Shown here piece by piece: positions 331 through 34,798 of a stretch of 37,471 bases of DNA. Source of the stretch: a virus (taxonomy: Duplodnaviria; Heunggongvirae; Uroviricota; Caudoviricetes). Positions within the stretch are counted from its first letter, which is position 1, and every line of letters begins with the position of its first letter. The notes below the pieces were generated by a model, which was given only the letters and a program-made list of their open reading frames with translations, did no database searches and was not told the DNA's origin. The translations under genes and the position numbers were made by a program. The stretch lies in the IMG/VR virus record IMGVR_UViG_2531839523_000005; one strand, 5' to 3'.

Positions 331-1094
331 CAAAGCCCTGACGATCAACATCGACCATTACGGTGGCATTCGGTTTATTGCCTGTCAGATAATAATAATC
401 AACAACCGTCATACCCTGGGTATATTTCCCCTGTGTTTCCACGCCAACCCAGCGCTCAACAGAGGTAAATAACTCCGGTTTCAACAGCCTGGCGATGGTG
501 CATGGGTCATGCAGTGGTGCGCCGACAAAGCCCCATTTTTCGTCTTTATGATATTCGAGGAAGAAATCCAGCAGTTCGGCAACAATGGTTGAAACAGGGT
601 TGCCAATCGCGCGGAAACGCTCAGTGTCTTCAACGTGGATTTGTGCTTTGTGAGTAACATCCAGACCGGCCATCACCACCGGGATCCCTGACTGGAAGAC
701 AATTTCTGCCGCTTCCGGGTCAACGTAAATATTAAATTCAGCCGCAGGCGTCCAATTACCCAGCCCCATTGCGCCGCCCATAATCACGATACGGGCAATT
801 TTGCTATGCAGTTCCGGATGGCTATTGAGCAGCAAGGCAACGTTAGTTTGCGGTCCGGTAGACACAATCGTGACAGGTTCCGCACTTTCGCGCAGCGTTT
901 TCGCCATCAGCTCTACCGCCGTACAGTTTTGCGGTGCGAACGTCGGTTCCGGTAATGCCGGGCCATCCAGACCGCTTTCGCCGTGCACATTGTCCGCGAT
1001 AATCAACTCACGCATTAACGGTTTTACCGCACCGCCTGCTACCGGAATATCGGTGCGATTAAGCAAGGTCAGCATACGCAGAACATTGCGTAAG
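331..1094 (-). pseudogene. rihA: Ribonucleoside hydrolase (RihA-like, IU-nucleoside hydrolase family) internal fragment; 5' end replaced by prophage terminus, 3' end replaced by IS1
   Basis: ORF 326-1075 translation (…[24 protein letters not shown]… ending …MVDVDRQGF) matches the RihA family as recalled from memory; the reading frame continues upstream of the annotated Met to about 1095 (…LRNVLR-M), where sequence switches to phage-end-like DNA; the last codons run directly into the IS1 IRL at 330. Confidence 0.75.
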
Positions 1095-1172
1095 TGATGC
1101 GCCGCGCGATAAATGCACTCTATCTTGTGCGATAAATGGCATCCACGCGGCGTTTCATTATTTGAAAAAGAA
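1095..1172. other. Prophage right terminus (attR-like) with candidate transposase-binding repeats
   Basis: Begins TGATGCGCCGCGCGATAAATGC, resembling the Mu right end R1 site as recalled; direct repeat GCGATAAATG at 1106-1115 and 1129-1138; GCGTTTCATTATTTGAAAAAG at 1149-1169. Confidence 0.55.
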
Positions 1173-1745
1173 TTACATTTCAGGTTGCGTTATGACAGTC
1201 CCAACAGGGTGATAGCGGTAGATCGTTGACAGTCCAATATCATAGATAATTGCCAGCCGCTTTCTGTCATACCCTTTCTGGAGCAATCTTGCGATCTGCT
1301 CATGCTGCTCCTTCGTCAGTTTCGGGCGACGTCCTCCAACTCTTCCTTGTGCTCGCGCAGCAGCCAGTCCTGCCAGCGTGCGCTCAACTATCAGTTCACG
1401 CTCCATTTCTGCCAGTGCACCCATCATATGAAAAAAGAACCTTCCCATCGGAGTGCTGGTATCGATTGAATCCGTCAGACTGCGAAAATTGACACCTTTT
1501 GCGCGTAGCTCTTCTGTGAGAGCAATGAGGTGTTTCATTCTTCTACCCAACCGATCCAGCTTCCAGACCACCAATGTATCCCCTCTTTTAAGGCACTTTA
1601 AAGCGCGTTTCAGGCCTGGTCGTTCCGACTTGGTTCCGCTCATTTTGTCCTCAAAAATCTGTTCACATCCTGCGCACATTAATGCATTGCGTTGCAAATC
1701 TATGTTTTGGTCATTTGTTGACACACGTATGTAGCCAATCAGCAT
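1173..1745 (-). CDS. gin: Serine recombinase, Gin/Pin/Hin-family DNA invertase
   Basis: [49 protein letters not shown]…; true start taken as the internal Met at 1745 (RBS AAAGGGAG upstream); the longer track ORF 1173-1874 is an in-frame N-terminal extension. Confidence 0.9.
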
Positions 1746-1799
1746 TAAAAATACTCCCTTTTGAGTGGTTAAAGTACTGAGATAATGTGGGGAGGATTT

Positions 1800-1825
1800 G
1801 AGAGATAAACGTTGGTTTGGGGGAA
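1800..1825. other. Candidate gix-like crossover site at outer boundary of left inverted repeat
   Basis: CAGAGATAAACG-TT-GGTTTGGGGGAA resembles the AAACC-NN-GGTTT core of Gin/Hin recombination sites; inner half lies inside the inverted repeat. Confidence 0.4.
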
Positions 1826-2010
1826 GGCTCTGCATTGCCTGTTGGTGTACCGGTTCCATGGCCCACCGCCACACCGCCAGCAGGCTGGTTAAAGTGCGAC
1901 GGGCGCGCCTTTACAAAAGAACAATATCCTGTTCTGGCCAGAGTCTACCCGACCCTCCGTCTTCCCGATTTACGCGGTGAGTTTATCCGTGGATGGGACG
2001 ACGGGCGCAA
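1812..2010. repeat. Left arm of perfect 199-bp inverted repeat flanking the invertible tail-fiber segment
   Basis: 1812-2010 is the exact reverse complement of 3230-3428 (checked at both ends and in the middle). Confidence 0.85.
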
Positions 2011-2329
2011 AGTTGATACAGGACGTAAGTTGCTGTCCGCACAAGGGGCAACGCTGTTAAGAACAGCAATGCTGGATTATTATAACCAGGACACTACGGG
2101 AACCTCGGGGATAGTCGGCATGGGATTCAACAATGAAGATTCCATTACAGACCTTCGTGAGGGCAGCTTTAAAATGCCGGACGGGACAACATTCAGCGAT
2201 CCTGTCGTGGCAATGTCAGACAATGGTATGCAGGCTACTATTCTGACCTCTATCAGAAGCGGGTATGCGAAGGGTATCACTGTCAGACCCCGTAGCATTG
2301 CACTTAATTACATTGTGAGGGCAGTTTAA
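1817..2329 (+). CDS. Alternative tail-fiber C-terminal cassette (silent orientation); first ~65 codons lie in the inverted repeat
   Basis: Translation starts GEGSALPVGVPVPWPTATPPAGWLKCDGRAF… identical to the expressed fiber, then diverges; ends …RSIALNYIVRAV like the expressed cassette (…RNIAFNYIVRAA). No own ATG (track start is TTG inside the repeat). Confidence 0.7.
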   Translation: MGEGSALPVGVPVPWPTATPPAGWLKCDGRAFTKEQYPVLARVYPTLRLPDLRGEFIRGWDDGRKVDTGRKLLSAQGATLLRTAMLDYYNQDTTGTSGIVGMGFNNEDSITDLREGSFKMPDGTTFSDPVVAMSDNGMQATILTSIRSGYAKGITVRPRSIALNYIVRAV

Positions 2330-2943
2330 TGAGTAACACTGCAGTTCTGGATGAAAACGGTATCGCCACTGTAGCGGGCGATATCACTGTATATCACTAT
2401 GACGAGGAAACCCGGGAATACACCTCATCCTCTGTGGAGTATCTCGCCCTTGGGGTGGGTACTCCGGCACATTCGTGCGCCGATGCACCGCCGGAGGCAA
2501 TTTCGGGTTACGTGGTTTGCCGGACTGCCACGCTGAACGGGTGGGAGCATGTGCCTGATCACCGCGGCGAGACGGTATACAGCACGGAGAACGGTAACCC
2601 TGTTCTGATTACCCAACCGGGTGATTACCCGGCGGACACCACCACAAAACAGCCAGCCACGCCATGGGATACCTGGAACGGTGAGGCGTGGGTAACCGAT
2701 ACTGAACGGCAGCGAGCCGCAGAACTGGAGGTTGCCAGACAGCAACGCCAGCAACGGGTGAAACAGGCGATGGCGTCAGTCGATCTTATCAACCTCAAAC
2801 TGCGTGCTGGTCGCAGTCTGACACCAGAAGAAACGGCAAAACTGAACGCCGTGCTGGATTATATCGACGAGCTGAACGCACTGGATATCAGCACGGCACC
2901 TGAAATCAGCTGGCCGGAAGCGCCACTGGCACTTGCCAGTTGA
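2329..2943 (+). CDS. Tail fiber assembly protein (Mu U / Tfa-like), coupled to the silent cassette
   Basis: 204 aa; overlapping ATGA stop-start with upstream cassette; convergent with the expressed fiber gene. Confidence 0.75.
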   Translation: MSNTAVLDENGIATVAGDITVYHYDEETREYTSSSVEYLALGVGTPAHSCADAPPEAISGYVVCRTATLNGWEHVPDHRGETVYSTENGNPVLITQPGDYPADTTTKQPATPWDTWNGEAWVTDTERQRAAELEVARQQRQQRVKQAMASVDLINLKLRAGRSLTPEETAKLNAVLDYIDELNALDISTAPEISWPEAPLALAS

Positions 2944-2949
2944 ACGGTA

Positions 2950-4248
2950 TCACGCCGCCCTCACGATATAGTTAAACGCGATATTGCGGGGGCGGGTTAT
3001 GTTAAAGAATGCTCCGTTTAATTCGGCTTTTGCGCGACTGTTTGTTCCACCCAGAATTACGTACCACAAATAATCGCTACGGTAATTCCCCGCAAACACC
3101 TTATCGCCGCCATAGTCAATATTATTTCCGTTACTCATGTACGAGATATCAAGCGAAGAATCGTTATCGTCATGACCGCCGACCAGTGTACCTTTCTGCC
3201 ATGAAAGCAACTTACGCCCCTCGTCAATCTTGCGCCCGTCGTCCCATCCACGGATAAACTCACCGCGTAAATCGGGAAGACGGAGGGTCGGGTAGACTCT
3301 GGCCAGAACAGGATATTGTTCTTTTGTAAAGGCGCGCCCGTCGCACTTTAACCAGCCTGCTGGCGGTGTGGCGGTGGGCCATGGAACCGGTACACCAACA
3401 GGCAATGCAGAGCCTTCCCCCAAACCAAGGTAATTGAGGACATCTTTTATACTGCCCTTAGCGATAATAGCGCGACCAATAGCTGTAAGGGTTGCCAGCG
3501 CTGCGCGGTCTGCTCCGGTAAAATAAGGCAACCGATCTGCTGCAGTGGCAAGTCCTGCCAGAGCAGTGAGCGTGGCATCTGCCGGTTGTTTTCCGTTTGC
3601 CAGATCGTATGCAGCCTTGACCGCTTTCGGTGTGGCGGCCAGTATTTCAGACGTGCTGTTGATGGCACTGCTCAGTTGTACGGTGCCTTTTGCCGTCAGC
3701 GAGGCAGCAGGCACTCCCGTTATCTGACTCCACGGGTGAGTGTGGCTGACGGGCGCCTTGCCGGCTGCAAGGTCGTATGCAGCCTTGACCGCCTTCGGCG
3801 TGGCAGCCTCAGTTTCTGATTGACTGTCCGTGGCGCTGCTCAGTTGTACGGTGCCTTTTGCCGTCAGTGAAGCCGCAGGCACTCCCGTTATCTGACTCCA
3901 CGGGTGAGTGTGGCTGGCAGGCGCCTTGCCGGCTGCCAGGTCGTATGCAGCCTTGACCGCTTTTGGTGTGGCGGCCAGCGTTTCAGAGGTGCTGTTGGTG
4001 GCACTGCTCAGTTGGGTGAACCCCTTAGCTGTCAGTGTCGCGTCCGGGTGGTTACGGGAACGTACGTGTTCAGCCAGTGACTGTGCGGCTTCCTCCGTTT
4101 TCTTCTTCAGCCATTTCGTCCTGTTTGCCAGTTGCCGGGGGGCTCGATTTGATATCCCGTCTGCACCACCCAGAACCGGATCTGATGTCTCCAGTTGATA
4201 GATATTTTCTTCCCACTTTTCTGTTTCATTCAGGTTTCCCATAATCAA
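2950..4248 (-). CDS. Tail fiber protein (Mu S-like), currently expressed orientation
   Basis: 432 aa; three tandem copies of a ~56-aa PKAVKAAYDLAAGKAP…HTHPWSQITGVPA repeat; C-terminal part shared with and then divergent from the plus-strand cassette. Confidence 0.85.
   Translation of the reverse strand: MIMGNLNETEKWEENIYQLETSDPVLGGADGISNRAPRQLANRTKWLKKKTEEAAQSLAEHVRSRNHPDATLTAKGFTQLSSATNSTSETLAATPKAVKAAYDLAAGKAPASHTHPWSQITGVPAASLTAKGTVQLSSATDSQSETEAATPKAVKAAYDLAAGKAPVSHTHPWSQITGVPAASLTAKGTVQLSSAINSTSEILAATPKAVKAAYDLANGKQPADATLTALAGLATAADRLPYFTGADRAALATLTAIGRAIIAKGSIKDVLNYLGLGEGSALPVGVPVPWPTATPPAGWLKCDGRAFTKEQYPVLARVYPTLRLPDLRGEFIRGWDDGRKIDEGRKLLSWQKGTLVGGHDDNDSSLDISYMSNGNNIDYGGDKVFAGNYRSDYLWYVILGGTNSRAKAELNGAFFNITRPRNIAFNYIVRAA
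3230..3428. repeat. Right arm of perfect 199-bp inverted repeat
   Basis: Reverse complement of 1812-2010; lies inside the tail fiber coding sequence. Confidence 0.85.
3415..3440. other. Candidate gix-like crossover site at outer boundary of right inverted repeat
   Basis: Minus-strand reading CCTCAATTACC-TT-GGTTTGGGGGAA; same inner half as the left site. Confidence 0.35.
3545..4048. repeat. Three tandem 168-bp coding repeats inside the tail fiber gene
   Basis: GTCGTATGCAGCCTTGACCGC recurs at about 3604, 3772 and 3940 (period 168 bp). Confidence 0.8.
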
Positions 4249-4823
4249 CTGCTCCCGTGGTTATAACTGCCATCATGGATGGCGGTATTGTTATAGCGAA
4301 TGGCCACAGACTGATACTCCAGGCTGGCCAGATGGCAGCGGGCCGGTGCAAATGCAGCCAGCGTCTGACGCAGCATCGCGGCCTGATCGTTAGTAATGGG
4401 CTGTTTCAGAATAACGCGATAAACTGCCCAGGCGGCTGCATCTCCATGAACAAACAGTCCGTTATAGCTGCGATTGCCGTCGTAACTGAGACGACCTGTG
4501 CCTTCAATCAGATCCACTTCACCAAAGCCAAAACGGCGGATAACTTCCCGGATTGACCACGGCGTCCCTTTATACCGGTGCAGTTCGATGGCTGCTTTTA
4601 TAAGCATGCGGCGAACATCGTCCGATTCCGCCAGCTCCCAGCCATCGCCAGACAGTGAGAACTGCTCGCCCAGCCATGGCAGCGCGGAACTGTCGACGAT
4701 ATCGACGAGAAAGACCATCAGTACGCTCAGGTCGATGTTATCCAGCCGTCCTGCCAGTCTTCCCAGCGTCCTGAGACTGATATCACCCTCAAGCGGTGGC
4801 GGGAGTTGTAATGGCTCAGTCAT
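4245..4823 (-). CDS. Tail protein (P2 gpI-like / Mu gp48-like)
   Basis: 192 aa; position between baseplate J-like gene and fiber; 4-bp overlaps with neighbours. Confidence 0.7.
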   Translation of the reverse strand: MTEPLQLPPPLEGDISLRTLGRLAGRLDNIDLSVLMVFLVDIVDSSALPWLGEQFSLSGDGWELAESDDVRRMLIKAAIELHRYKGTPWSIREVIRRFGFGEVDLIEGTGRLSYDGNRSYNGLFVHGDAAAWAVYRVILKQPITNDQAAMLRQTLAAFAPARCHLASLEYQSVAIRYNNTAIHDGSYNHGSS

Positions 4824-27772: not shown

Positions 27773-27877
27773 CATCGCCCCACAGGAATGCGCTGTGAGC
27801 CGACCAAGGTTCAGTCAGTCTCGCGAGACCTGACCAGACTGCCATATTTTTTAATAATTGTAAAAGGCTTACAGATT

Positions 27878-28642
27878 ATGAAAATGCAGACATTACCCAT
27901 CGTGCCGTGGATTGGTGGCAAACGCCGCCTTGCAAAACACATTCTGCCGCTGTTTCCGGCGCATGAATGTTATGTGGAGCCGTTTTGTGGGGCAGCAGCG
28001 CTCTATTTTCTTAAGACACCCGGCAAGATCGAAGTCATCAATGATATCAACGGTGAACTGGTGAATCTGTACCGGGTGGTAAAGCATCACCTGGAAGAAT
28101 TTGTCCGCCAGTTCAAATGGGCGCTGGTCAGCCGTCAGATCTACAAATGGCTGCAGATCACCCCGGAAGAAACACTGACGGATATCCAGCGTGCGGCACG
28201 GTTCTACTACCTTCAGAAGCAGGCGTTTGGCGGCAAGGTGGCAGAGCACAGCTTCGGTACCTCCACCACATCCCCGCCACGCTTCAACCTGCTACGTATT
28301 GAAGAAGAACTGTCAGCGGCACACCTGCGGCTTTCCAGAACAGTCATAGAACACATGGACTGGCAACAGTGCATTGAGCGTTATGATCGTCCGCACACGC
28401 TGTTCTACTGCGACCCACCGTACCTGGGTACGGAAGGCTATGGTGTGGATTTTCCTGAAGGGAACTACTCGCGGCTGGCAGAGCTGGCCCGGTGCATCAG
28501 AGGAAAAATGATAATTTCGGTGAACGACATCCCGCAGATGCGCGAGGTGTTCACTGGACTGAACATACAGACAGTGAATATCAACTACAGTCTGGCGGGT
28601 AAACCCACGCCGCGCCGTGAACTGCTAATCTGCAACTTCTGA
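27878..28642 (+). CDS. Dam-family N6-adenine DNA methyltransferase (orphan)
   Basis: VPWIGGKRRL, VEPFCGAAALYF, DINGELVNLYRVVK and YCDPPY motifs; start taken at MKMQTLP (27878), the track ORF begins at 27788. Confidence 0.9.
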   Translation: MKMQTLPIVPWIGGKRRLAKHILPLFPAHECYVEPFCGAAALYFLKTPGKIEVINDINGELVNLYRVVKHHLEEFVRQFKWALVSRQIYKWLQITPEETLTDIQRAARFYYLQKQAFGGKVAEHSFGTSTTSPPRFNLLRIEEELSAAHLRLSRTVIEHMDWQQCIERYDRPHTLFYCDPPYLGTEGYGVDFPEGNYSRLAELARCIRGKMIISVNDIPQMREVFTGLNIQTVNINYSLAGKPTPRRELLICNF

Positions 28643-29768: not shown

Positions 29769-30689
29769 ATGGGACGTACCAAATCACCGATTAACACTGA
29801 ACTGAACGCCGATGTACCGCTGTCGGATGATCTCAACGTCAGCCTGAATGCCATGACACAGCATCGCATGGAGATCATGCAGCAGTTTGGTGATGGACTG
29901 CCTTATGAACGTGAACGCATCGTTCACGAAGCACGTTTTTATATGGCGCAGAGTGCTGAATCTATGTTGGAAGCGGGTAAGCGGCTGATCATCTTAAAAG
30001 AAAATGAACCGCATGGTGATTTCACAAATATTCTGGAAAACGACCTCGGATTAGCACCACAGGTAGCTCGTCGCATGATGCAGGCCAGCGTGAAATTTCT
30101 CGGCAATGGAGATGAACAGCCAAAACGCTCAGCGCTGAGCGTTTTGGGAAAAACCAAGTTATATGAACTGATGGTTCTGGATGACGAAGAACTCGACGCA
30201 TTAGCTGATGGTGGAACCGTCGCCGGTGCAACGCTTGATGATATTGATCGCATGACCAGCCGCGAACTGAAGGCCGCCCTGCGTGAAGCGCGCGAAACCA
30301 ACGCAGCTCAGCAACAGGTGCTTGCCGGAAAGGACGAAAAAATCAACGAACTGGCCACAAAACTGGAGAAGAAATCGCGCCTGCAACCTCCGCCGCCAGA
30401 CGAAGAACTGAAAAAATTGCGGGCGGAAGTGACGGCATTAGCGGTTGAGGCCGAATCGGCTATCGCCGTCCGGCTGTCCAGTGTTTTTGAGACCCTGTGT
30501 GAATACTGCACCAAAAACATGATCGATACCCCCAGAGATTTCATGGCCGGTCTGGTCTGCCAGATTGAACGCAGTGTTCATGCATTACGTGAGACGTTTG
30601 ACCTTGAGGCCGCTCCATCGGGTAACGATGCCCCCGCCTGGCTGACCGAACCGGAACCTGAAATCAACCGACCGGAGGATATGCAGTAA
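29769..30689 (+). CDS. Hypothetical early protein with coiled-coil and Pro-rich linker
   Basis: 306 aa; TAAGGAG RBS. Confidence 0.55.
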   Translation: MGRTKSPINTELNADVPLSDDLNVSLNAMTQHRMEIMQQFGDGLPYERERIVHEARFYMAQSAESMLEAGKRLIILKENEPHGDFTNILENDLGLAPQVARRMMQASVKFLGNGDEQPKRSALSVLGKTKLYELMVLDDEELDALADGGTVAGATLDDIDRMTSRELKAALREARETNAAQQQVLAGKDEKINELATKLEKKSRLQPPPPDEELKKLRAEVTALAVEAESAIAVRLSSVFETLCEYCTKNMIDTPRDFMAGLVCQIERSVHALRETFDLEAAPSGNDAPAWLTEPEPEINRPEDMQ

Positions 30690-31006
30690 TGAATACGAAT
30701 AACACACAAAATACCCTGATGGACAGCCCGGAGGCACTGGGGCACGCACTGTGTAATCTGCTGCCGGAGATGGTGCAGGGTTTCCGCGTGGTGACCCCTT
30801 CCGGTGAAATCTGCGTACCCGCACAGGAGACGCACCCGTTTGTACTGACGATGGAGGTGATGCTGATGCAGCAGATAAGACGTCTGCAGAATCAGTCAGC
30901 ATTACGCCCGGTAGTTGCACCGCAACCGGTAAATACCGTGGTGAAAACCTGCGATGGCGAAACACTGTGCGACCTCGCCAGAAAAATTGCCGCCAGAATC
31001 GGATAA
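30689..31006 (+). CDS. Hypothetical early protein
   Basis: 105 aa; start overlaps upstream stop. Confidence 0.45.
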   Translation: MNTNNTQNTLMDSPEALGHALCNLLPEMVQGFRVVTPSGEICVPAQETHPFVLTMEVMLMQQIRRLQNQSALRPVVAPQPVNTVVKTCDGETLCDLARKIAARIG

Positions 31007-31021
31007 CAGGGAAGACAAGCT

Positions 31022-32791
31022 ATGACCCCGGCACTGACTGAAAAACTGGTTGAAACAGCCCGCGCGGCACGTGACGCGGGGCATGGTAAACGCGGTGCAA
31101 TATACGACGCTGCCTGTGCTGAACTTGGCATGTCCCGCGCCACTCTGCTGCGCAGGCTGAAGGAGGTATCTGTGACTGATAAACGCAAAAACCGCGCCGA
31201 TGCCGGGCGCAGCGCCCTGACCCGCGACGAAGCCGCGCTGATATCTGCCACACTGCGTGAGGCCACCCGCAAGAACGGTAAGCGTCTCTATTCCATCGCA
31301 GATGCAGTGGAAACCCTGCGGGCTAACGGCTTTATCACCGCAGGCAGAACAGATGAAACCACCGGTGAGTTTTTCCCGTTGTCTGAAGATGCCATCAGCC
31401 GTGCTCTGCGTAACTATGGCCTGCACCCGGAACAACTGGATGCCCCTGCACCACATACCGAAGTGGCCAGTCTGCATCCCAATCATGTCTGGCAGATTGA
31501 CGCCTCACTCTGCACGCTTTACTACCTGAGCAATGGACATAAAGGGCTGCAGGTGATGGACAGCGCGAAGTTCTACAAGAACAAGCCCGCTAACCTTGCC
31601 CGTATCGCCAGTGACCGCGTGTGGAGTTACGAGATTACCGACCATGCCAGCGGCTGGATTTACGTTGAGTATGTGACGGGCGCGGAATCAGGTGAGAACC
31701 TGTGTTCTGTGCTTATCAACGCCATGCAGGAGCGTGGCGGCGCAGACGTGCTGCACGGCGTGCCGAAAATACTCTATCTCGACCCCGGCTCGGCAAACAC
31801 CGCGGGTATGACGAAAAACATGTGCCGCTCACTGGGCATCGACCTGATAGCGCACAAGCCGCATAACGCCCGCGCCACCGGACAGGTGGAAAAGGCGCGT
31901 GACATTATCGAACGCAAGCTGGAGCCGGGTCTGAAGTTCCGGCCGGTTCACAGTCTGGAAGAACTCAACGCGCTGGCCGCGAAATGGCGCAGCCACTTTA
32001 ACGCCACGGCTGTTCACAGCCGCCACGGTAAAACCCGCACGGATATCTGGCTGAAGATTACTGCTGAGCAGCTGAAAAAAGCGCCTTCCGTTGAGGTATG
32101 TCGTGAACTGGCTGTGGCGGCACCAGAACTCCGCAAAGTCACGCCAAAACTTCGTGTCTCGTTCCGGGGCACTGAATTTGACGTATCAACGGTACCGGGC
32201 GTACTGGTTGGTGAAAAACTGATGATTACCCGTAACCCATGGCGCAGCGATGTGGCACAGGTGGTTCTGACCGGTGAGGACGGCCACGAGACGTTCTTCC
32301 TGGTCGAAGAGGTCAGAAAGAACAAGTTTGGCTTTGCTGAAGGCGCGGCGGTATTTGGCGAAAGTTACAAAGCCCTGCCGGAAACCCCGGCACAGATGGC
32401 GGCAAAAGAAACCGAAGCGCTGGTTACCGGTACAGACAACGCCGCAGATGCAGCCGCCGCACGCAAGGCGAAGGCGCTGCCGTTCGGCGGGCGGCTTGAC
32501 CCGTATAAACATATCGACGACACCACACTTCCGGCCTATATGCCGAAGCGTGGTCAGGCCTCTGACGTACGCGGGCCGCGCACTGAACAACGTCCCATGA
32601 CTCATGTGGAGGCCGCGAAAGCCCTGCGCGATAAGTTCAGCGCCGACGGCCTTACCTGGACGCCGGAACATTACCGCCAGTTAACGGCACAGTACCCGGA
32701 CGGCGTACCGGAAGCCGCACTGGATGAAGTCATGGCCACGCTGACCACACCGGCCCGCAGCAGTGTTATCAGCATTGTTAACGGCAACTGA
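31022..32791 (+). CDS. DDE transposase (MuA-like transposase A)
   Basis: 589 aa; N-terminal HTH, integrase-core-like HPNHVWQIDASLCTLYY … ILYLDPGSANTAG. Confidence 0.85.
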   Translation: MTPALTEKLVETARAARDAGHGKRGAIYDAACAELGMSRATLLRRLKEVSVTDKRKNRADAGRSALTRDEAALISATLREATRKNGKRLYSIADAVETLRANGFITAGRTDETTGEFFPLSEDAISRALRNYGLHPEQLDAPAPHTEVASLHPNHVWQIDASLCTLYYLSNGHKGLQVMDSAKFYKNKPANLARIASDRVWSYEITDHASGWIYVEYVTGAESGENLCSVLINAMQERGGADVLHGVPKILYLDPGSANTAGMTKNMCRSLGIDLIAHKPHNARATGQVEKARDIIERKLEPGLKFRPVHSLEELNALAAKWRSHFNATAVHSRHGKTRTDIWLKITAEQLKKAPSVEVCRELAVAAPELRKVTPKLRVSFRGTEFDVSTVPGVLVGEKLMITRNPWRSDVAQVVLTGEDGHETFFLVEEVRKNKFGFAEGAAVFGESYKALPETPAQMAAKETEALVTGTDNAADAAAARKAKALPFGGRLDPYKHIDDTTLPAYMPKRGQASDVRGPRTEQRPMTHVEAAKALRDKFSADGLTWTPEHYRQLTAQYPDGVPEAALDEVMATLTTPARSSVISIVNGN

Positions 32792-32801
32792 GGAGGGAAA
32801 C

Positions 32802-33968
32802 ATGCTGGTACTGAAGCAGCAACTGAAAGAGGCCCGTATTCCACAGGCGGTGGTGGCGAGAGCTGTCGATGTTTCTGAGGCCACGCTGGCCCAGATTGTG
32901 AATCATAACGCGTGGCCCCGCACCAGCCCCGGAGAAGTGCGCCGGCGTCTTGCGTCCTGGCTGGAAAGTCAGGGGATTGATACAACGAAGAGTTTTGATG
33001 CTGTACAGGGCGCGGCCACGCCCCGTACAGCGGGTACCACAGATAAAACGAGCCTCAGTGAGGAAGAGAATATGTTACTCAAAAAACAGGTGTTATTTCC
33101 AGCAACCAAAAAAGCGTTTGGTCTTTTCCGTGACCCGTTCGCCGACGAAGCCATGCAGGGTTCTGATGATGTGTTCACCACCCCGGATATTCGCTACGTG
33201 CGTGAGGCGTTGTACCAGACAGCCCGTCATGGTGGGTTTATGGCCGTCATCGGTGAGTCCGGTGCGGGTAAATCCACGCTGCGCCGCGACCTGACTGAAC
33301 GTATCAACCGCGAGAATGCGCCGGTAATTGTTATCGAGCCATACATCATCGCTATGGAAGACAACGATGTGAAAGGGAAAACCCTGAAGGCAGCAGCGAT
33401 TGCCGAAGCCATTATCAGTACCATCGCACCACTGGAAAGCATCAGACGCAGTCAGGACGCCCGCTTTCGCCAGTTGCATCGCGTCCTGAAAGACAGCAGC
33501 CAGGCGGGGTTCAGCCACGTTCTGGTGATTGAGGAGGCCCACAGTCTGCCCATTCCGACACTGAAACACCTCAAACGCTTTTTTGAGCTGGAGTCCGGTT
33601 TCAAAAAACTGCTGTCCATCGTGCTGATTGGCCAGCCGGAACTGGCGACAAAACTGTCTGAACGCAATATGGAAGTCCGTGAAGTCGTTCAGCGCTGTGA
33701 GGTGGTCGAACTTCTGCCTCTGGACAATAACCTTGAAGAGTTTCTGACGTTCAAACTGCAACGGGCCGGTAAACAACTGACGGACATTATGGACGCCAGC
33801 GCAGTGGATGCCATACGTGCCCGCCTGAGCAATCCGGGAAGTCATCGTAAAAATATGGTCAGCCTGCTGTATCCGCTGGCCGTCAGTAACCTGGTAATAG
33901 CCGCCATGAATCTGGCCGCTGAAATCGGGGTTCCACAGGTCAACGCTGACGTTGTCAAAGGGGTTTAA
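32802..33968 (+). CDS. AAA+ ATPase transposition protein B-like
   Basis: Walker A GESGAGKST; N-terminal HTH; AGGAGGG RBS; follows transposase. Confidence 0.8.
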   Translation: MLVLKQQLKEARIPQAVVARAVDVSEATLAQIVNHNAWPRTSPGEVRRRLASWLESQGIDTTKSFDAVQGAATPRTAGTTDKTSLSEEENMLLKKQVLFPATKKAFGLFRDPFADEAMQGSDDVFTTPDIRYVREALYQTARHGGFMAVIGESGAGKSTLRRDLTERINRENAPVIVIEPYIIAMEDNDVKGKTLKAAAIAEAIISTIAPLESIRRSQDARFRQLHRVLKDSSQAGFSHVLVIEEAHSLPIPTLKHLKRFFELESGFKKLLSIVLIGQPELATKLSERNMEVREVVQRCEVVELLPLDNNLEEFLTFKLQRAGKQLTDIMDASAVDAIRARLSNPGSHRKNMVSLLYPLAVSNLVIAAMNLAAEIGVPQVNADVVKGV

Positions 33969-33970
33969 TA

Positions 33971-34240
33971 ATGAAATCCACCACAGGTATCAACCAGCAA
34001 ATCAGCAAAGTGCAGTCAGCCATTATGGCGCTTAAGGCGACGAACACGGATGTACAAAGCATCACCATCAGGGGTAACAAACCTGTCATCCGCGTTTCCC
34101 GGAGTGCGCATTGCATGCGCATGCTTGAGCAGGGAAAGGCCTGTTATCTGTATACCGGTCATGACCACAGGGGACATTTCCGTCAGGGCGTTTTCGAACT
34201 GCACGGCTGTCGCGTCGTGTGGCCGGAATCTTTGTGGTAA
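33971..34240 (+). CDS. Hypothetical early protein
   Basis: 89 aa. Confidence 0.45.
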   Translation: MKSTTGINQQISKVQSAIMALKATNTDVQSITIRGNKPVIRVSRSAHCMRMLEQGKACYLYTGHDHRGHFRQGVFELHGCRVVWPESLW

Positions 34241-34267
34241 TCAGCACAACAGGAGGAGTCATAAAAT

Positions 34268-34798
34268 ATGGCAAAAAGTACAAAAGGGGCAAAACGTATC
34301 AAAGCCGCAGCAGCACTCTGGGTGCCGGGGACACGCGAAGAGGTCATTGAGGGAATCAGACTGCTTGGTGACGCGCAACGTGAACTGGTCAGGGCTGAAA
34401 CAGAAATGAATGACACCATTGGCGACATCACTGCACGTTATGCCCCGCTCACCGAGAGCCTGAAAAAACGCATGGCCGAACTGCAGTCCGGTATCCAGAC
34501 ATGGTGTGAGGCGCACCGTGATGAACTGACCGGCAACGGGAAGGTGAAGTTCGCTAACCTCACCACCGGCGAGGTGCAGTGGCGAAACCGTCCGCCGTCA
34601 GTCAGCATTCGCGGGGCGGATAATGTCATTGAACTGCTGAGACGTCTGGGGCTTGAGCGCTTTATTCGTGTAAAGGAGGAAATAAATAAAGATGCCATTC
34701 TGAATGAAAAAGAGGCTGTGAAAAATATTCCCGGTATTACCATAAAAAGTGATATTGAGGATTTTTCAATAATTCCTTTTGAGCAGGATGTGCAGTAA
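34268..34798 (+). CDS. gam: Gam-like host-nuclease inhibitor (Ku-like DNA-end-binding protein)
   Basis: MAKSTKGAKRIKAAAALWVP… and …ITIKSDIEDFSIIPFEQ match Mu Gam as recalled. Confidence 0.85.
   Translation: MAKSTKGAKRIKAAAALWVPGTREEVIEGIRLLGDAQRELVRAETEMNDTIGDITARYAPLTESLKKRMAELQSGIQTWCEAHRDELTGNGKVKFANLTTGEVQWRNRPPSVSIRGADNVIELLRRLGLERFIRVKEEINKDAILNEKEAVKNIPGITIKSDIEDFSIIPFEQDVQ

Follow-up and report, generated by a model that had tools for sequence, protein, structure and literature searches.

A two-site Gin/Min-type tail-fibre inversion module with a single tfa gene on a BcepMu-like prophage of Escherichia coli

Introduction

In the G segment of phage Mu, inversion by the invertase Gin exchanges the 3' part of a tail-fibre gene, and the C segment of phage P1, which is served by the invertase Cin, is flanked by long inverted repeats consisting of coding sequence common to both fibre variants. 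Here we describe a related locus in the IMG/VR virus record IMGVR_UViG_2531839523_000005 (Duplodnaviria; Heunggongvirae; Uroviricota; Caudoviricetes), of which one strand of 37,471 nucleotides was analysed (this whole stretch is referred to below as the window). The element in question is a Gin/Min-type tail-fibre inversion module of an already described class. It comprises a serine DNA invertase gene, an invertible segment with one fused and one silent fibre-tip cassette, and a single tail-fibre assembly (tfa) gene, and it very probably constitutes a site-specific host-range inversion switch on a BcepMu-like transposable prophage of Escherichia coli.

The locus resembles the Mu G/Gin system in its transposable carrier, in the position of the invertase gene at the extreme right end, in an invertase which is 76% identical to Gin, and in homologous 26-bp sites of the form TTCC...AAACC NN GTTT. 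Mu differs in having repeats of about 34-39 bp, a GA core and a 3-kb segment, as against 199 bp, AA and 1.6 kb in the window. It also carries two complete Sv-U operons (U and U') where the window has one tfa gene, and it joins an S-type tip to a Mu backbone where the window joins a collar-type tip to a BcepMu-like one. P1 shares with the window the coding nature of its repeats, and the location of the sites (its cix sites and crossover points are annotated at the outer repeat ends); its enhancer is annotated in the 5' end of the invertase gene, where the window has a putative one. It differs by its 636-bp repeats (98% complementarity), its 4.2-kb segment, an invertase with 72% identity and a pair of chaperone genes (U and U').

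The Min multiple-inversion system of plasmid p15B was reportedly described by Sandmeier, Iida and Arber in 1990/1992. Min and the P1-like phages have collar-coding repeats that belong to the repeat family of the window (approximately 210 bp, 90-92% identity), and the Min-like invertase of a P1-like phage is the closest to that of the window (approximately 82%). As in the window, the Min-like region of the P1-like phage vB_EcoM-673R5 has one tfa gene for several cassettes, in this case with five sites. Min differs from the window in its six crossover sites (two in the window) and in its carrier, which is a P1-like plasmid prophage and not a transposable phage. The tip of T4 gp37 (PDB 2XGF) likewise combines a collar domain with the C-terminal sequence NIAFNYIVR(L/A)A; it differs in possessing a long iron-binding needle and in undergoing no inversion. 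T4 gp37 makes use of the chaperones gp38 and gp57A.

Prophages of enteropathogenic E. coli (EPEC) have been reported to undergo inversions, including that of a Mu prophage, and to contain a three-repeat shufflon in a P2-like prophage (PMC4272514). A gin-dependent fibre shufflon with three isoforms has been reported for the Enterobacter prophage FR-phi (PMC13418256). In these shufflons, as in the window, a Gin-like invertase connects a constant 5' fibre part with alternative 3' cassettes. Long reads or PCR revealed mixed populations in them, and locked variants differ in infectivity (PMC13418256, PMC4272514). Likened here by their published descriptions, they differ from the window in having three cassettes and other backbones, and the papers are silent on chaperone supply.

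Results

Organization of the inversion module

The predicted invertase (Table 1) was found to have Gin structures as its best PDB matches (4M6F and 3UJ3, E ~1e-91), with the catalytic serine, which sits in the motif YIRVSTNDQ, aligned to theirs. The true start of the gene is the ATG at position 1745, in register with the start of gin; a longer open reading frame (ORF) of 233 aa at 1173-1874 was considered as the invertase gene and rejected as an artefact of the ORF finder, as it is ATG 1745 that aligns with the gin start. A putative Fis-dependent recombinational enhancer lies within the 5' part of the gene. The stretch equivalent to the P1 enhancer has a mean column identity of 84% in a four-way alignment of cin, gin, the Min-like gene and the window gene, and Fis-like motifs occur at matching positions in gin and in the window invertase gene. 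This conservation is consistent with an enhancer, though it proves nothing, and the invertase may depend on Fis.

The longest perfect inverted repeat in the window is one of 199 bp, which at 96% complementarity extends to 229 bp (1809-2037/3203-3431), and the segment bounded by its outer ends measures 1617 bp. A perfect repeat of this length cannot have arisen by chance. Exactly two gix-like 26-mers were identified in the window by pattern search, in inverted orientation and with the same AA core. The invertase-proximal site, read on the minus strand, is TTCCCCCAAACC AA CGTTTATCTCTC and the fibre-side site is TTCCCCCAAACC AA GGTAATTGAGGA, and both were aligned to Mu gixR, which reads TTCCTGTAAACC GA GGTTTTGGATAA. 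Each arm of the perfect repeat has an AA core as its two outermost bases.

A core-to-core flip performed in silico yields an in-frame alternative fibre of 445 aa which is followed directly by tfa. At present the fused cassette lies tail-to-tail with tfa, the convergent stop codons being 6 bp apart, so that there is no space between them for a second tfa gene. In the proposed mechanism, the serine invertase would pair the two gix-like sites, and strand exchange at the identical AA core would flip the 1617-bp segment, so that the final 91 residues of the fibre would give way to 104 others. The long repeats are coding sequence for the collar domain common to both tips, and would not be the substrate of recombination.

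This anatomy agrees with the original prediction made for this DNA, which had placed perfect 199-bp repeats around a 1617-bp segment beside a Gin/Pin-family invertase, with gix-like sites at the outer repeat boundaries. The prediction also had one expressed cassette on the minus strand, with a second cassette and the only chaperone gene on the plus strand, so that the chaperone is coupled to a cassette in the flipped state only. The catalytic serine, on whose integrity it depended, is intact, and the endings of the cassettes, NYIVRAA and NYIVRAV, are as it had stated. Its suggestions that certain of these traits are unusual fared less well. The length of the repeats has a precedent in P1, whose 636-bp repeats also have the sites at their outer ends, the T4 gp37 tip shares the NYIVRA ending, and the single chaperone gene proved to be the rule in collar-type arrays of 2-9 sites (see below).

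Table 1. Positions of the predicted features of the inversion module and its carrier in the window.
Feature	Position	Strand	Evidence and remarks
BcepMu-like transposable prophage	1095-37471	-	Invertase-proximal end at 1094/1095 in host rihA; other end beyond the window
Gin/Min-family serine DNA invertase, 190 aa, catalytic Ser9	1173-1745	-	Pfam Resolvase 5.6e-51 and HTH_7 1.3e-12
Putative Fis-dependent recombinational enhancer	1656-1727	-	Equals +19 to +90 of cin, the annotated enhancer in P1
Invertase-proximal gix-like site	1800-1825	-	Core TT/AA at 1812-1813; aligned with Mu gixR
Left arm of perfect 199-bp repeat	1812-2010	+	Codes for collar domain of silent cassette; Pfam Collar 9.8e-16
Silent cassette, variable part (type 10, 'C position')	2011-2329	+	Ends NYIVRAV
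tfa, sole tail-fibre assembly (chaperone) gene, 204 aa	2329-2943	+	Pfam Caudo_TAP 3.5e-28
Fused cassette, variable part (type 6, 'A position')	2950-3229	-	Ends NYIVRAA; stop at 2950
Right arm of perfect 199-bp repeat	3230-3428 (extended 3203-3431)	-	Codes for collar domain of fused fibre
Fibre-side gix-like site	3415-3440	+	Core AA at 3427-3428; pattern search
Tail-fibre gene, constant part	3429-4242	-	Pfam Phage_fiber_2 5.3e-56

Inversion in natural genomes

Both orientations were looked for in public genomes and both were found. Of 5,426 complete E. coli genomes, 178 agree with the window in orientation and 120 with the flipped construct (at a coverage of at least 80%), these counts being pooled over two- and three-cassette variants. 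The clearest case is provided by strains AR_0013 and CE10, in which the prophage is inserted within the same Lom gene and the segment lies in opposite orientations: when positions 2213-3829 of the AR_0013 locus are flipped, the sequence equals that of CE10 with zero mismatches over the invertase, the segment and the junctions.

A second case comes from sequence type 131 (ST131) isolates of one study, which carry a three-cassette version beside aroA. The segment of isolate S2, flipped core-to-core, equals that of REF2 but for 1 base. As the repeat arms of these isolates are only 86% alike, the point of exchange can be mapped; it lies at most 19 bp from each core, and no chimeric repeats were seen. 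Another isolate, R11 (L006), equals REF2 (L005) minus 439 bp (L005 3818-4249); the deletion is bounded exactly by the AA cores of two sites in direct orientation, which indicates that the invertase can also delete cassettes and so shrink an array. These genomes show that a two-cassette array can arise from a three-cassette one by core-to-core deletion. Together, the flips and the deletion point to site-specific recombination and not to RecA-mediated exchange.

The repeat arms are not perfect in relatives of the window. Those of AR_0013 (L003) have 11 differing positions, divided 8 to 3 between the arms, and with the 86% likeness of the ST131 arms, perfect repeats are found in this window only. 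Since the arms of relatives are imperfect, the perfection of the repeat reflects recent homogenisation and is no requirement of the system; it points to a probable recent gene conversion between the two arms of the window.

In most genomes (L002-L008, E. coli RefSeq), the fibre gene and the silent cassettes are called 'incomplete' pseudogene fragments by the annotation pipeline PGAP. This annotation is an artefact, caused by the inversion module together with the shaft repeats, and the survey described below accounts for the appearance of such fibre genes in RefSeq as fragments or pseudogenes.

Fibre gene, cassettes and tfa

The fibre gene likely starts at the ATG at 4242, which is preceded by GGGAG as read from the sequence, while the ORF finder gives TTG at 4248. 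Its shaft contains three tandem repeats of 168 nt at 3590-4093 (100, 85, and 62% identity), which correspond to Phage_fiber_2 units. The fibres of relatives range from 428 to 531 aa, which suggests that the number of shaft repeats varies.

The tip of the fibre matches the receptor-binding tip of T4 gp37 (PDB 2XGF, E 2.8e-14), which ends in NIAFNYIVRLA. In the T4 gp37 structure the C-terminus returns to complete the collar, and a C-terminal strand with this role would explain why the NYIVRA ending is common to these tips.

The stop codon of the silent cassette overlaps the start of tfa (TAATG). The Tfa protein scores 98.8 bits against PF02413, above the gathering cut-off of 22.1, and a hidden Markov model (HMM) survey detected a single copy of tfa at the window locus. 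The window does not have the U/U' layout, in which every alternative fibre 3' part has a dedicated assembly gene after it. A second chaperone hidden antisense within tfa was also considered; it was rejected, because the long antisense frame is found in this tfa type only and is broken in diverged ones. A PDB sequence search with Tfa gave no match, and a scan of species-representative genomes with Tfa as the query returned a single short locus.

Distribution of related arrays

A survey was made of 80 IMG/VR loci with invertases 84-99% identical to that of the window, plus relatives, in which repeat copies and tfa genes were mapped. Seventeen loci lack a long repeat, and most of these have two tail-to-tail tfa genes, which is the plan of Mu and P1. 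A second layout, with collar-coding repeats of approximately 220 bp in 2-9 copies, was found in 53 loci (a number that takes in the window, L001-L008 and Mu, L009), and exactly one tfa gene was present in 45 of them. These 45 loci have 2 (11 loci), 3 (15), 4 (6), 5 (6), 6 (4), 8 (2), or 9 (1) sites. Relatives with a 99%-identical invertase have three sites and the window has two.

The window has the repeats of about 200 bp coding for a collar, the tightly packed NYIVRAA cassettes and the one tfa gene per array that mark these loci, marks which were derived from the present survey and not from a published definition. Min-type systems are defined by more than two crossover sites, with at least three alternative 3' ends, and the window has two sites. 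It is a minimal two-site member of a widespread shufflon-like class, and since a single tfa gene is present in 45 of the 53 long-repeat loci, its layout is typical of the class and not exceptional.

With a threshold of 60% identity, the tips in the survey fall into at least 20 types, all of which are framed by the collar and RPRNIAFNYIVRAA. A stretch of about 35-40 nt coding for RPRNIAFNYIVRAA closes every cassette, for example at 2605-2639 and 3128-3162 in L002 and at 2290-2329 and 2950-2990 in the window. Judging from this arrangement, in which the tips are framed on both sides, the collar repeat and the RPRNIAFNYIVRAA end could allow cassettes to be exchanged by homologous recombination.

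Further features of the arrays were observed. Swapping between arrays affects the cassette that lies tail-to-tail with tfa more frequently than the co-oriented neighbour. In some arrays a single tfa gene accompanies 8-9 collar-type sites (among IMG/VR loci L025-L089, e.g., L054, L046, and L073). Many tip types bear HxH motifs (e.g., DHAHY, SHYHN, and KHRHI) that resemble the metal-binding motifs found in T4 gp37 and gp12, and the two tips of the window are without them.

Chaperone supply and alternative explanations

In every surveyed array one cassette was found to lie tail-to-tail with tfa, where it can never be co-transcribed with it. Type 6, the type of the fused cassette in the window, takes this position in 13 of its 15 occurrences, and type 10, the type of the silent cassette, adjoins tfa in the same orientation in all 21 of its own. 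Four types of Tfa N-domain were recognized, and the type tracks the co-oriented cassette and not the tail-to-tail one. The ratio of non-synonymous to synonymous substitution (dN/dS) is 0.06-0.24 for the tail-to-tail cassette types, like that for all others, and 0.07 for type 6; such low values indicate that these types are functional coding sequence. As the fused cassette is made without a co-transcribed Tfa, either its folding does not require Tfa or the protein must be supplied to it in trans.

Most likely, the single Tfa serves as a common helper for the array and is genetically tied to its co-oriented neighbour cassette. Foremost among the possible modes of supply, and held tentatively at somewhat below an even chance, is a Tfa that is generic for every cassette by way of the collar and the C-terminal strand and that is supplied in trans in the present state. 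It is in keeping with this that the cassette types number at least 20 and the Tfa N-domain types four, that arrays of up to nine sites have one tfa gene, and that the collar and the RPRNIAFNYIVRAA end are common to all cassettes. For gp37, which has a collar-type tip, lambda Tfa is able to take the place of T4 gp38. Possible sources in trans would be an unrecognised promoter, flipped copies during replicative transposition, or the tfa genes of other prophages, and the matching E. coli genomes hold a median of four homologous places. It is more doubtful that one Tfa is a universal folding helper for 20 or more tips through the collar and the RPRNIAFNYIVRAA strand, available even when antisense, for example from an unrecognised promoter on the invertase side.

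A number of points bear on, or weigh against, parts of the reading proposed above. A scan of positions 1000-4400 for sigma-70 promoters gave no hit at all, and so none that might serve tfa in its present orientation, with 3.1 expected by chance, and terminator-like matches in the same region were at chance level. The absence of a candidate tells against a supply of generic Tfa in trans; it lends no support to independent transcription of tfa and is no strong evidence against it. The N-domains of Tfa proteins are reported to be fibre-specific (PMC9608196), which disfavours a fully generic chaperone. The collar-type tips of HK97 and of the P2-like pro483 and T22 are each followed by their own tfa, so that folding without Tfa is not the default expectation; this point counts in favour of a shared Tfa. 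As regards the switch itself, the counts of the two orientations combine array variants, and the part ascribed to Fis and the enhancer is deduced from conserved sequence.

The possibility ranked next, and also given less than an even chance, is that the fused cassette needs no Tfa and folds with host or general chaperones, tfa serving the linked neighbour only. A protein with the same collar fold, T4 gp12, depends on gp57A but not on gp38 or Tfa. The co-variation of the Tfa N-domain type with the co-oriented neighbour alone would fit this explanation, as would the purifying selection on tail-to-tail types that are never co-transcribable with tfa. However, the same cassette types are co-oriented with tfa in other arrays, so selection could act there, and the tips of HK97, pro483 and T22 with their own tfa genes speak against it. 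In our ranking, a Tfa-independent tip stands behind a shared or trans-supplied Tfa and ahead of a non-functional state, which is judged unlikely. In such an 'off' state the tip would misfold without its coupled chaperone and the cassette would be just a recombination reservoir; tfa is indeed antisense to late transcription at present, but the dN/dS of 0.07 for type 6, with frames intact in 15 loci, and the occurrence of this state in 8 of the 40 IMG/VR survey loci with a visible junction and in many complete E. coli genomes are at odds with it. Least probable, and very unlikely, is RecA-dependent homologous recombination between the long repeats with the invertase incidental, for although RecA could act on a perfect repeat of 199 bp, the ST131 relatives exchange within 19 bp of the cores without a chimeric repeat, their 439-bp deletion ends exactly on two AA cores, and the G segment of Mu inverts with repeats of merely ~39 bp.

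Host element

The prophage that carries the module is inserted in the host gene rihA, whose reading frame halts at the junction of CGTAAG with TGATGCGCC. The part of rihA (ribonucleoside hydrolase) in the window occupies 326-1094 on the minus strand and is cut by the prophage end, which continues from CGTAAG as TGATGCGCCGCG. The genes of the window include an rve transposase, an AAA partner, Mu Gam, and a baseplate and sheath of P2/Mu type, and the early genes run opposite to the late genes. The early and transposition genes (DUF3102 protein, rve transposase, AAA protein and Gam) are located at 29769-34798 on the plus strand, and a gene for a D12-class (Dam-like) adenine methyltransferase is located at 27788-28642, also on the plus strand. 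This layout of early and late genes presumably resembles that of BcepMu and not that of Mu.

In other strains near-identical copies are found beside aroA and within paaJ, a lambdoid Lom gene and rfaH; their presence at unrelated chromosomal sites indicates a transposable phage. The fibre region is 99% identical to that of phage PhiKM, which is classed as Bcepmuvirus. BcepMu is reported to be without an invertible region (PMC2628397); the inversion module is hence a mosaic acquisition.

Discussion

The anatomy of the module, the in-frame fusion of its cassettes, its inversion at the cores in natural genomes and the layout common to its class were all shown; we infer that the flip would switch the receptor of the phage, and the mode of chaperone supply set out above is likewise deduced. 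The switch is common in clinically important E. coli lineages, among them ST131 and the meningitis strain CE10.

The collar-type tips, of which there are at least 20 types, make up a modular library with conserved 5' and 3' coding flanks, shuffled by Gin-like invertases and accompanied by a single assembly gene. The position that is never co-transcribable with tfa provides a clean genetic test of chaperone dependence. If it is true that one Tfa matures many tips, or that some tips need none, the re-targeting of phages and tailocins would be simpler, and a universal Tfa, if this holds, would amount to a portable chassis of one chaperone for many tips.

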